DNA from: Candidatus Cloacimonadota bacterium
Lineage (GTDB): Bacteria; Cloacimonadota; Cloacimonadia; JGIOTU-2
Direction of reading: 5' to 3'
Length of the DNA: 64,000 nucleotides
NCBI GenBank assembly: GCA_034722995.1
Contig: JAYEOL010000022.1
Location: 4,859 to 68,858, forward strand
Below, piece after piece: positions 53,868-55,043 of the stretch. Numbering within the stretch: position 1 is the first letter of the stretch; each line of letters opens with the position of its first letter. The notes below the pieces were generated by a model, which did not search any database, was not told where the DNA came from, and saw nothing but the letters and a program-made list of their open reading frames with translations. A program made the position numbers and the translations under genes.

Positions 53868-55043
53868 ATGAAAATACCAATGTTAGACCTTAACGCCCAA
53901 TATGAGCCAATTAAAGATGATGTGTTAAATGCAATAAAAGAGGTTTTTGAATCCAAAAGATTTATAAACGGACCTCAAATTACAGAATTGGAAGAGAAAA
54001 TTGCAGGATATTGTCAGTGCAAATATGCAATAGGCGTTTCTTCTGGAACAGATGCAATTTTGATTTCCTTAATGGCAATGGAAATTGGACAGGGAGATGA
54101 GGTCATTACGACACCATTTACTTTTTTCGCAACAGCAGGTTGCATTTATCGTATGGGTGCAAAGCCTGTTTTTGTAGATATTGACCCCAAAACATATAAT
54201 ATAAATCCTAATCTGATTGAAGAAAAAATTACTGACAAAACAAAAGCCATCATTCCTGTTCATCTTTTTGGGCAGATAGCTGAGATGGACAAAATAAATG
54301 GGATTGCAAAAAAACATAATCTTTATGTAATTGAAGATGCTGCACAGGCTATCGGTTCAGAATATTTACCCTGTGGAATAAATATTACGCAGAATAAAAG
54401 CAATTATAATAAAAATAGTATTCCACAGGGCGAGGGTAAAAGAGCTGGTTCAATAGGTGATGTAGGCTGCTTCTCATTTTTCCCGAGCAAAAATCTCGGC
54501 TGTTGCGGTGACGGTGGAATGGTTACAACAAATAACGAAGAATTAGCAGAAAAAATAAGAGTACTCCGAGCTCATGGGAGTAAACCAAAATATTATCATA
54601 AAATTATTGGTGGTAATTTTAGACTTGATACTATTCAAGCAGCGGTTTTATTAGTTAAATTCCCATTATTAGAAAAATGGCATAAAGGTCGTCAGAAAAA
54701 TGCTCTTTACTATAATAAAAGATTGAACAATACTGTTGAAACCCCGTATGTAGAAAATTATAATAGGATGATTTATAATCAATATACGATTAGAGGTAAA
54801 AATAGAAATAGACTTCAACACCATTTAAAAGATTCCAATATTGGAAATGCGATTTACTATCCTGTTCCGCTTCACCTTCAAGAATGTTTTGCATATCTTG
54901 GGTATGAAGAAGGAGATTTACCAGAAGCAGAAAAAGCATCAAATGAAGTAATTTCAATACCAATTTATCCCGAATTGACAGATGAACAAAAGGATTATAT
55001 AATTGAAGAGGTAAAAAGAGGTATAGGGGATATAAAGGTATAA
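53868..55043 (+). CDS. DegT/DnrJ/EryC1/StrS-family PLP aminotransferase (WbpE-like) carrying an in-frame insertion of about 22 aa
   Basis: Conserved blocks either side (AIGSEY / [21 protein letters not shown].GDGG). 391 aa versus about 365 aa typical. Confidence 0.85.
   Translation: [391 protein letters not shown]
54369..54430 (+). repeat. 62-nt element with perfect 12-bp terminal IRs (ccctgtggaata / tattccacaggg) inserted in frame inside the DegT aminotransferase CDS
   Basis: IRs read directly. The insertion encodes [22 protein letters not shown] between the conserved EY and K(R)AGS blocks. Confidence 0.75.

Follow-up and report, generated by a model that had tools for sequence, protein, structure and literature searches.

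An in-frame palindromic segment in a DegT-family aminotransferase gene

In the 64-kb stretch of DNA analyzed here (the window), the forward-strand ORF at 53868..55043 is intact and encodes a DegT/WbpE-type PLP-dependent sugar aminotransferase of 391 aa. We found that the protein matches PF01041 (DegT_DnrJ_EryC1) with 407 bits over profile positions 3-359 of 360 in a Pfam search, and that it aligns with the solved structures 7b0d, 3frk (QdtB), and 3nu7 (WbpE) at E values of 1e-102 to 1e-91. Its SFFPSK stretch aligns with the SFFPSK of WbpE, which is the PLP-lysine motif; hence, the protein is a member of the DegT/DnrJ/EryC1/StrS family.

The alignment with all three solved homologs runs through Y166 and restarts at E189/G190, with residues 167-188 facing a gap and the frame kept. 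At the DNA level, this is an in-frame insertion of 66 nt (22 codons) at 54366..54431 of the forward strand; the registration 54369-54434, that is, the core plus 4 nt, is equally valid. The preliminary description had placed about 22 added residues between conserved DegT blocks, and the segment is indeed extra relative to every solved homolog. Insert-free orthologs read GAA TAT and then AAA GGT AAG at the codon level, with the insertion point between TAT and AAA.

The left terminal inverted repeat, CCCTGTGGAATA (54369..54380), and the right one, TATTCCACAGGG (54419..54430), are exact reverse complements separated by 38 nt, which confirms the perfect 12-bp repeats and the 62-nt core (54369-54430) described earlier. 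These repeats match the arms CCCTGTGRAAT and ATTYCACAGGG of the repeat family described below. The 4-nt flanks are TTTA on the left (54365..54368; family pattern YYYR) and CGAG on the right (54431..54434; family pattern YRRR). As they are not direct repeats of each other, this insert shows no target-site duplication; the GAG codon of the right flank occurs in insert-bearing alleles only, and TTTA...CGAG or TTCA...CGAG flanks are also found at two other family loci (L100 and L023). The insert folds into a hairpin of -19.3 kcal/mol (z = -5.9 vs. shuffles). Perfect inverted repeats of at least 12 bp with spacers of 3-60 nt occur at five loci of the window, relative to about 1.2 registers expected from order-1 Markov simulations; restricting the arms to a GC content of 50% or more lowers the expectation to 0.005, which puts the DegT repeat above chance.

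The segment is restricted to a few close orthologs

Of 25 aligned homologs, 22 lack the insert, some of them being orthologs at 83-88% identity; apart from the window protein, its only carriers are three close orthologs from Cloacimonadota (85-92% identical). A survey of 53 metagenomic homologs gave a 5-aa loop at this position in 47 and one of 6-10 aa in five, and 27 aa was seen in the P0002 allele only. Since the solved homologs and 22/25 of the aligned homologs lack the segment, and since the usual loop has 5 aa, the alignments identify it as a lineage-specific insertion and not as a family feature. The same insert was recovered in independent JGI, NCBI-MAG, and Logan assemblies; hence, it is not an artefact.

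The insert is also less diverged than the gene around it. Between the window and the alleles L001 and L004, it is identical at 66/66 positions, against a difference of 9-10% in the adjoining mid-gene DNA (P ~0.002), and identity between L004 and the window gene drops sharply just downstream of the insert. Another insert-bearing allele, L005, has its nearest neighbour in the insert-free L009 (89.1% nt identity) and shares only 80% identity with the window gene; its insert matches that of the window at 60/66 positions (P ~0.03). The L005 insert has three synonymous and three non-synonymous changes, and an uncompensated T-to-G change in its left arm reduces the inverted repeat to 11/12. This patchy distribution in the DegT gene tree and the low divergence relative to the flanks suggest that the insert spread later, and the insert looks young.

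An AlphaFold2 model of the host protein built from 26 sequences (mean pLDDT 61.6; insert <50) was too poor to place the loop. We infer that the insert is exposed at the surface because loop length varies naturally at this site.

Related elements and other palindromes in the window

The window has four CCC...GGG elements with TTYA flanks relative to 0.2 expected, and the left flank is TTTA or TTCA in 4/4. Copy A (1974..2046) reads TTTA, CCCCGTTGGATA...TATCCAACGGGG, and TAAA, and breaks into an Avd-like 23S_rRNA_IVP gene (ORF 2051..2389) at its 5' end. Removing 1978-2046 (69 nt) restores PF05635 profile positions 1-8 and raises the score from 101.1 to 113.6 bits; this copy, out-of-frame or stop-containing, appears to truncate its host gene. 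Copy B (8772..8843) reads TTTA, CCCCGTATGATA...TATCTTACGGGG, and TAAA, and is intergenic, downstream of the T9SS protein ORF 6729..8726. Copy C (61650..61706) has the canonical three-way architecture: TTCA, CCCTGTTAAAT, the inner hairpins CCCTTCGGG and ATCCCGATATATCGGGAT, ATTTAACAGGG, and TGAA. Within the 64 kb, the DegT copy is the only cleanly in-frame member. Counting copies had been proposed as a check on the 62-nt element, and the outcome was divided: the family is repeated in the window, but the 62-nt sequence in its exact form occurs there only once, so no source copy was identified for the DegT insert.

The other palindromes cited in the preliminary description are all present. A 29-nt in-frame palindrome, CCCCATTAGAT-AGCAAGC-ATCTAACGGGG (4645..4673), belongs to the T9SS C-terminal domain encoded by ORF 3168..4877, at the position of an indel (FPPLDSKHLTGQA) that sets this domain apart from its paralog in ORF 6729..8726; Por_Secre_tail in ORF 3168..4877 spans 89 residues over 67 profile positions. 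We found mini-hairpins of the form CCCGAT...ATCGGG four times in the window vs. 0.00 expected. CCCGAT-TGCT-ATCGGG (4727..4742), in the same T9SS domain, is additional to those cited; CCCGAT-TTA-ATCGGG (8476..8490) lies in the T9SS domain of ORF 6729..8726 and codes for the extra residues PRFNRG by comparison with the paralog; and CCCGAT-GAA-ATCGGG (34697..34711) falls near the 3' end of tadA (ORF 34217..34732), in a C-terminal tail that is non-homologous. TadA homology stops at residue 150-151 and the hairpin overlaps the tail beyond it, so the tadA case is not an insertion into a conserved block. We also considered whether the GC-rich region 35260-35440, in which a perfect palindrome of 36 nt has GTGAAAT arms, is an RNase P RNA carrying an element, and dropped the idea when RNase P went unmatched in a permissive search of Rfam.

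The termini belong to a dispersed family of small palindromes

We scanned species-representative genomes with the pattern CCCTGTGRAATN{12,42}ATTYCACAGGG, built from the DegT element and one neighbouring copy, and found at least 120 genome loci in roughly ten phyla, relative to about four expected by chance in 596 Gb (own calculation). The phyla include Cloacimonadota, Bacteroidota, and Patescibacteria. Because the pattern was derived from these two copies, the search itself accounts for part of the uniformity seen in the arms. The consensus is YYYR-CCCTGTGRAAT...ATTYCACAGGG-YRRR with 34-63 nt between the flanks, and each copy adds about 38-67 nt. Among the matches listed, many genomes are multi-copy, with several contigs per MAG (e.g. 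CAYWHT01). Like a MITE, the family is dispersed and repeated, with four copies in the window and five in 21 kb of the sister contig L001, and intergenic copies with DegT-type arms are present in sister contigs as well. By arm sequence, the termini of the DegT insert are those of a multi-copy palindromic family that recurs in many phyla as well as in the window and its sister contigs, which is a property expected of selfish DNA of the RPE (Rickettsia palindromic element) or MITE type.

The typical member folds into a basal stem with two small hairpins and shows strong covariation. The 11-bp terminal stem is perfectly paired; in the 50-nt class, 93.8% of cells are paired and 10/11 inner pairs show double compensatory changes, a pairing score reached by 0/500 shuffles (slid controls, 37-43%). 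The interior of the DegT insert is AT-rich and has no such inner hairpins; hence, it may be a decayed or divergent member. The orientation of G·U vs. A·C flank pairs was uncorrelated with the strand stability of the inner hairpins (Spearman 0.12, P = 0.19), which gives no support to a strand-specific structure acting only as RNA.

Among the matches listed, TTTA/TTCA is the commonest left flank, the flank classes include TTCA, TTTA, CCCG, and CTGG, and identical 4-mers stand on both sides of 23/119 copies, most flanks forming no direct repeat. Tandem copies are always spaced by 4 nt. Intergenic copies showed no bias to convergent, divergent, or co-directional neighbours among the matches listed. 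Empty counterparts of the intergenic sites were not obtained from sister contigs, which were too divergent or held other gene cassettes, and an empty host palindrome was not found in a Saprospiraceae MAG.

All-versus-all clustering of 653 ORFs near the 120 listed loci revealed no recurrent transposase; the clusters were common families (response regulators, ABC permeases) and a DUF559-like gene in four loci. Nothing in the viral contigs of IMG/VR matched the family, and with Rfam 15 the window had no hit that reached the gathering threshold, nor did six loci carrying an element have any at E<=1. In the literature, the arm sequences occur only as unrelated primers, and keyword searches returned reviews on RPEs, MITEs, and REPs in which the family is not described. 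Hence, this family of tiny hairpin elements is apparently undescribed so far.

In-frame copies in other conserved proteins

Family members are also found in frame in other conserved proteins, as judged from alignments with solved homologs and from the reading frames. EF4/LepA carries a copy seen as a 20-aa gap relative to 5imq, and a second DegT-family enzyme, from Bacteroidales, has a family copy at the identical codon boundary between Y and xGK (gap vs. 7b0m); the two insert-bearing DegT-family proteins are only 29% identical to each other. A GT4 glycosyltransferase and a GH127-like protein hold further copies. Across genomes, one family is thus in frame in several unrelated genes, as in the RPEs. 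Among the matches listed, the core plus 4 nt is divisible by three in 14/15 copies within ORFs of at least 150 aa, and all in-ORF copies are stop-free in the host frame.

Comparison with known elements

RPEs are about 100-150 bp, are confined to Rickettsia, and lie in frame in unrelated conserved genes (PMC10969869, summarising Ogata et al. 2000, 2002). The family resembles them in being palindromic, multi-copy, in frame in unrelated conserved genes with the ORF kept, and also present in non-coding DNA, and its added peptide is, as there, presumed to occupy tolerated surface positions. In contrast to RPEs, the DegT element adds just 66 nt and belongs to a family with CCCTGTGRAAT termini, a stem with two covarying hairpins, and a range of roughly ten phyla. 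Membership in RPE-1 to RPE-10 was rejected by size (62-66 nt) and host (Cloacimonadota), the distinction being drawn on these two features.

With bacterial MITEs (Correia, ERIC, BOX, RUP, Coxiella QMITE, Nezha), the family shares short length, no coded transposase, perfect terminal inverted repeats, dispersed copies, and occasional in-frame fusions. It differs in that no cognate insertion sequence was seen among the ORFs near the 120 listed loci and no target-site duplication is evident for most copies; inner hairpins conserved by covariation and not by sequence, and identical 11-bp termini across phyla, are also unusual for MITEs. Intragenic in-frame MITE fusions beyond Rickettsia are known for ERIC, BOX, Coxiella QMITE1, and Anabaena MITEs (review PMC10969869), so the earlier statement that the pattern is rarely reported outside Rickettsia was somewhat overstated. 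In-frame insertions of the MITE/RPE kind are therefore not new; the family, its breadth, and the repeated use of one site appear to be.

As small structured multi-copy palindromes with hairpins as the probable recognition feature, the elements are similar to REP/REPIN-RAYT and to IS200/IS605 'PATE' derivatives. IS608-type 'peel and paste' transposition inserts next to a fixed tetranucleotide without duplication, and one reconstruction of copy A and locus L109 fits insertion beside a fixed TTTA in this manner. Unlike REP/REPIN, however, the family is not strictly extragenic, and its ends, unlike those of IS200/IS605, are complementary to each other. Neither a RAYT nor a TnpA gene appeared in the surroundings of the 120 listed loci. 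REP palindromes have a GTAG or CGTC tetranucleotide tag, according to PMC3733652; relative to that tag, we rejected REP/REPIN-RAYT membership, since the flanks here are YYYR/YRRR and GTAG or CGTC is never among the common flank classes of the matches listed. Integron attC sites (RYYYAAC...GTTRRRY, with extrahelical bases) were likewise rejected, the family having TTYA-CCCTGTG...CACAGGG-TRAA termini and a perfectly paired 11-bp stem. Nematomorpha mitochondrial genes contain in-frame coding palindromes of up to 284 bp (PMC6649704). These are also inverted repeats within conserved protein-coding genes, but they are long, organellar, and eukaryotic, and do not form a cross-lineage dispersed family with fixed termini.

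Origin of the insert

The DegT segment is probably a non-autonomous palindromic repeat of the MITE/RPE kind that integrated into coding sequence. It is short, has terminal inverted repeats, and has no coding capacity of its own, as a MITE does; it is palindromic, missing from most orthologs, frame-preserving, and stop-free, which places it in the RPE-like class of in-frame insertions. The earlier reading as a selfish, RPE-like insertion is supported by the insert-free orthologs and the multi-copy termini. An element of this type would have invaded the DegT coding sequence, where it persists because 66 nt (62-nt core plus 4) is a multiple of three, is stop-free, and falls in a loop of naturally variable length; the enzyme would then have, between Y166 and G190, 22 additional residues forming a hydrophilic loop, presumably translated and tolerated. 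Mobilization may occur in trans by an enzyme reading the 11-bp CCC...GGG termini, the 4-nt YYYR/YRRR flanks, and the folded hairpin, candidates being a DDE transposase with 4-bp duplications or a hairpin-specific single-strand (HUH/Y1) transposase. CC(C) ends together with 4-bp duplications are features of IS1380/piggyBac-like enzymes. After its origin, the insert could have spread among related Cloacimonadota by homologous recombination or repeated site-specific insertion.

The loop could instead have expanded in situ by template switching or a small inverted duplication, with the inverted repeat as a by-product and no mobile element. Such an origin would agree with an interior that has no second copy in the window and no family-type inner hairpins, and with a loop that accepts natural indels of 6-10 aa in other homologs, but not with exactly inverted 11-nt arms that recur unchanged in at least 120 dispersed elements of other genomes and in intergenic copies from sister contigs, nor with flanks that obey the YYYR/YRRR rule. 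Like arms and flanks elsewhere in the source genome were seen in part (four elements in 64 kb), and the 29%-identical Bacteroidales paralog has another family member at the same codon boundary; we regard in situ expansion as very unlikely. Removal of the segment as an intervening sequence, either after transcription (as an intron or an RNase III-processed IVS) or after translation, to leave a mature enzyme without it, is more doubtful still and would be extremely surprising. A spliced element would need neither a length divisible by three nor freedom from stops, yet 14/15 in-ORF copies add a multiple of three and all are stop-free, among the matches listed. Like those of rRNA intervening sequences and of archaeal bulge-helix-bulge introns, the paired termini do join both ends, and one sister copy has a '23S rRNA intervening sequence protein' family gene as its host; however, that copy seems to cut the host gene short, Rfam gave no ribozyme or intron match in the window and six loci, no strand-specific structure signal was seen, and 22 aa is far too short for an intein.

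Retention for the benefit of the host, either as an mRNA structure tuning translation or decay in the polysaccharide operon or as a loop altering enzyme or partner specificity, is unlikely. In its favour, the insert shows zero nucleotide differences among the window, L001, and L004 vs. 9-10% in flanking DNA, its hairpin is stable (z = -5.9), it is retained in frame in at least four diverged alleles, and L005 has accumulated equal numbers (three each) of synonymous and non-synonymous changes. Recent recombinational spread explains the low divergence equally well, given the sharp breakpoint in L004, and the uncompensated arm change in L005, the apparently fully intact closest insert-free orthologs, and the disorder of the insert in the predicted structure all speak against selection by the host. 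Insertion of a MITE/RPE-type element thus remains our preferred reading of the DegT segment.

More tentatively, and with somewhat less than even confidence, we propose a pan-bacterial family of about 40-70-nt 'three-way-junction' palindromes with CCCTGTGRAAT/ATTYCACAGGG termini, YYYR/YRRR flanks, and two covarying inner hairpins. This family would cross phyla that share anoxic habitats, have lengths biased to multiples of three, and enter core proteins such as EF4 in frame and perhaps site-specifically (twice at the DegT boundary between Y and xGK), as a miniature RPE counterpart with hairpin-recognizing mobilization.

Implications

Colonization of genes by in-frame palindromes has mostly been treated as peculiar to Rickettsia and a few pathogens, and is now seen in uncultivated Cloacimonadota, Bacteroidota, Patescibacteria, and others, with an element much smaller than RPEs that keeps identical termini and a conserved fold across phylum boundaries. 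If confirmed, the family would be a tractable marker of horizontal DNA flow in anoxic communities, a source of both loop innovation and annotation noise in MAG proteins (peptides PC(G/E)I...I(P/S)QG), and a pointer to a hairpin- or terminus-specific mobilization system. Independent inserts at one DegT-family codon boundary would then provide a direct test of target specificity vs. permissive-site selection.

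A palindromic segment is inserted in frame in a DegT aminotransferase gene

With about 33% GC, the window is AT-rich, and the 391-aa product of its ORF 53868..55043 (+ strand) matches Pfam PF01041 (DegT_DnrJ_EryC1) over its full length with 407 bits. Inside this ORF, the left arm CCCTGTGGAATA (54369-54380) is followed, after a 38-nt spacer, by its exact reverse complement TATTCCACAGGG (54419-54430). For perfect inverted repeats of 12 bp or more whose arms are 50% GC or richer, Markov simulations predict 0.005 per window; hence, the DegT inverted repeat is above chance. The 70-nt segment folds with an energy of -19.3 kcal/mol (z = -5.9).

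The preliminary description had read the extra segment as an in-frame insertion instead of a family feature, and alignment to characterised DegT/WbpE homologs bears this out. We found that 7b0d, QdtB (3frk) and WbpE (3nu7/3nyu) align in two blocks, the first ending at Y166 and the second starting at E189/G190. Hence, residues 167-188 (nt 54366-54431) have no counterpart in the solved homologs. The best database matches of the protein are from Cloacimonadota, and in an alignment of 26 homologs the segment is present only in the window protein and its close homologs P0001 (92% identical), P0002 (88-90%) and P0003 (85%). In P0004-P0007 (83-88% identical) and all other aligned homologs, ...SEY leads directly to (K/N)(G/N/E)KRAGS. 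Insert-free orthologs read GAA TAT | AAA GGT AAG CGA and insert-bearing alleles GAA TAT TTA CCC TGT ... CCA CAG GGC GAG GGT AAA AGA. Among 53 further metagenomic homologs, this loop has 5 aa in 47, 6-10 aa in 5 (so small indels are tolerated here), while the P0002 allele alone reaches 27 aa. Hence, the large insert is limited to a narrow Cloacimonadota group.

The segment is probably a non-autonomous palindromic mobile element that has become fixed, with the reading frame kept, in a permissive loop. The aminotransferase appears intact and would presumably bear the added loop, and we infer that the insert is both translated and harmless; the AlphaFold model of the protein is too poor for loop placement. 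Separately, an assembly artefact was ruled out because assemblies made independently (JGI, NCBI-MAG and Logan) all contain the insert.

The insert looks younger than the gene lineages

The DegT gene tree has two clades, each with insert-bearing and insert-free members. The insert-bearing gene on related contig L005 is 89.1% identical to the insert-free gene on L009 and 80.3% identical to the window gene. In the window, L001 and L004 the insert is identical (66/66), against a difference of 9-10% in the mid-gene DNA around it (P about 0.002); for the window and L005, 60/66 insert positions agree (P about 0.03, allowing for the divergence of the flanks). Being less diverged than its flanks and patchy in the gene tree, the insert looks, from these sequence comparisons, younger than the DegT gene lineages. 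Its patchiness would reflect spread by recombination or repeated insertion, or several precise losses; in L004, identity collapses directly downstream of the insert. One arm base is changed in L005 with no compensating change; selection on the hairpin itself is thus not obvious in that copy.

The P0002 allele also has a second in-frame insertion of 30 nt (L001 10859-10888, residues 287-296, SARSGSALSG), which is built from a pair of GC-rich mini-hairpins, TCCGCCAGAAGCGGA and TCCGCCTTGAGTGGA, and is absent from all other orthologs.

The arms of the element belong to a dispersed family

The exact DegT 62-mer occurs once in the window. However, the window holds 4 TTYA-CCC...GGG-YRRR elements whose arms pair at 10/11 positions or better, vs 0.2 expected, and these 4 lie at 1978-2042 (copy A), 8776-8839 (copy B), 54369-54430 (the DegT copy) and 61654-61702. 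The 21-kb sister contig L001 has 5, and on L009 an intergenic element adjoining the DegT ortholog has arms CCCTGTGAAAT/ATTTCACAGGG, one compensated change from the DegT arms. In 596 Gb of genomes, one for each species, the pattern CCCTGTGRAATN{12,42}ATTYCACAGGG matched at least 120 loci vs about 4 expected by chance by our calculation. The matches listed include Bacteroidota, Desulfobacterota, several Patescibacteria classes, Cloacimonadota, Chloroflexota, Omnitrophota, Ignavibacteriota, Planctomycetota, Spirochaetota, Bdellovibrionota and others, with many contigs per MAG for several MAGs. The viral contigs scanned gave no match, no Rfam family searched matched the elements, and the arm sequences returned only unrelated primers in the literature searched.

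A typical copy runs from a 4-nt YYYR flank (e.g. TTCA, TTTA, CCCG, CTGG) through an 11-nt arm, two short local hairpins with loops of 3-5 nt and the complementary arm to a 4-nt YRRR flank (TAAA, TGAA, CAGG, CAAG, CGAG). In the 50-nt class, the commonest among the matches listed, 24/29 copies have a 6-bp hairpin then a 5-bp hairpin in fixed polarity, with 10-11/11 inner pairs. Across 27 sequences of this class, 93.8% of cells are paired and compensatory double changes occur at 10/11 inner pairs, with the caveat that the search pattern dictated the arms and that every copy was oriented to suit the structure; none of 500 shuffles matched the observed structure score, and the figure for slid controls was 37-43%. 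The DegT copy shares arms, size and flanks (TTTA...CGAG, as in L100) with the family; its interior is AT-rich and free of inner hairpins, similar to copies A and B. Among the matches listed, flank mismatches are of the transition type in 163 cases vs 68 others, identical flanking 4-mers occur in 23/119 copies, and neither a gene-context bias nor a strand bias pointing to RNA-only structure was found. Tandem copies are always spaced by exactly 4 nt.

Motifs resembling tandem half-sites (AGATTTCACCCCGATGAAATAAC, TTTCATCCCAGTGAAAC, AACCCCAGTGAAAT), in which right-arm and left-arm sequences abut, occur at 61715-61775 and 57480-57500 in the window and again upstream of metK in the sister contig L001 (4930-5000).

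In-frame copies and mobilisation

Among the matches listed, 15/119 non-redundant copies are located within open frames of 150 aa or more; in 14 of these 15 the core plus 4 nt is divisible by three (binomial P = 2e-6). Removal of the element at the RNA or protein level is unlikely, because the in-ORF copies obey the reading frame. Opposite the copy in Moranbacteria EF4/LepA (L013), T. thermophilus EF4 (5imq) shows a 20-aa gap, and in a Moraniibacteriota GT4 glycosyltransferase (L023) the Pfam match ends at the insert. In-frame copies also occur in a GH127-like protein (L122) and an Anaerolineae membrane protein (L062). A Bacteroidales DegT-family enzyme (L109) carries the insert ...GSYY[SPCEIKKQNGGNLNQEIISQG]KGKHTG between Y and KG(R/K) of 7b0m, at a codon boundary identical to that of the window gene, in a protein only 29% identical. 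On the minus strand of L109, about residues 98-137, lies a second insertion of ~38 aa (…EVAPSPRHCEEERRSNLISPSPPLF…) that is absent from 7b0m and may derive from another repeat element.

Copy A (1974-2046 with flanks) breaks up the 5' end of a four-helix-bundle gene of the Avd-like 23S_rRNA_IVP type (ORF 2051..2389) and brings in a stop codon; the ATG right after the element could yield an N-terminally truncated protein. Removing 1978-2046 (69 nt) rebuilds FEDLKVYQMAYEL, regains Pfam profile positions 1-8 and raises the score from 101.1 to 113.6 bits.

The reconstructions of these copies agree on the core plus 4 nt as one insertion unit. Insertion might take place next to a TTYA tetranucleotide with no duplication, which fits copy A and L109, or with a 4-bp duplication, which fits L062 (CTGG...CTGG). 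A DDE enzyme producing 4-bp duplications is favoured by the 4-nt spacing and occasional direct repeats, and a hairpin-specific single-strand transposase by the covarying hairpins and TTYA-adjacent reconstructions; we regard the two candidate mobilisers as roughly equally likely. No recurrent transposase was found among the neighbours of the matches listed. A small DUF559/Vsr-like endonuclease gene is present in 4 of the 120 element-bearing loci listed (e.g. L110 4682-5074) without adjoining the elements, and its recurrence may be coincidence.

Other palindromes and the neighbourhood

Palindromes had also been described in both T9SS C-terminal sorting domains and in tadA. The former are real: GC-rich mini-palindromes, some with the motif CCCGAT-N3-4-ATCGGG, lie in frame at 4645-4673 and 8476-8490, with an extra one at 4727-4742, and match positions of reciprocal indels between the two paralogous domains. 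The tadA palindrome (34697-34711) is present but in a 20-residue tail past the TadA homology; hence, it is a 3'-end overlap and not an insertion into a conserved block. CCCGAT-N3-4-ATCGGG mini-palindromes number 4 in the window vs 0.00 expected. In agreement with the description of intergenic DNA filled by palindromic modules, short GC-rich hairpins crowd the spacer between two SSB genes (55466-55792): CTCCGAT-TT-ATCGGAG, CCCCACAAT-TT-ATTGTGGGG+TAAA, CCGAT-GA-ATCGG and CCCCCTGAT-AA-ATCAGGGGG.

At 52737-53836 and 55112-57339, conserved polysaccharide-synthesis genes (GFO/MocA oxidoreductase, DegT) alternate with small toxin-antitoxin/defence-like cassettes (PIN/VapC, HEPN/MNT, AbiEii, DUF6036) and with two or three SSB genes that are nearly identical (55112..55465 and 55793..56170), and each related contig (L001, L004, L006, L008, L009) has a different set of cassettes. 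Right downstream of two tRNA genes, 35260-35440 is GC-rich and apparently structured, with a perfect 36-nt palindrome with GTGAAAT arms at 35365-35400; this segment has no Rfam match even at E<=1.

Relation to known repeats

Rickettsia palindromic elements (RPEs) and intragenic MITE fusions are the functional match to the DegT element, which is not an RPE by size and host. The pattern had been thought rarely reported apart from Rickettsia; that case is known, but intragenic MITE/RPE fusions are also known from Coxiella, enterobacteria, pneumococci and Anabaena (PMC10969869). REPs have a GTAG/CGTC tag (PMC3733652) that this family lacks, and integron attC core sites are absent from it.

Within the literature searched, the family itself appears new. 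Its new-looking traits are its very small size, identical termini in roughly ten phyla, a conserved three-way fold and two independent insertions at one DegT codon boundary. A further one is a multiple-of-three length bias even in apparently intergenic copies (core plus 4 nt divisible by three in 58/104 copies outside long ORFs among the matches listed for loci L010-L129, P = 2e-6), for which selection on the present frame does not account.
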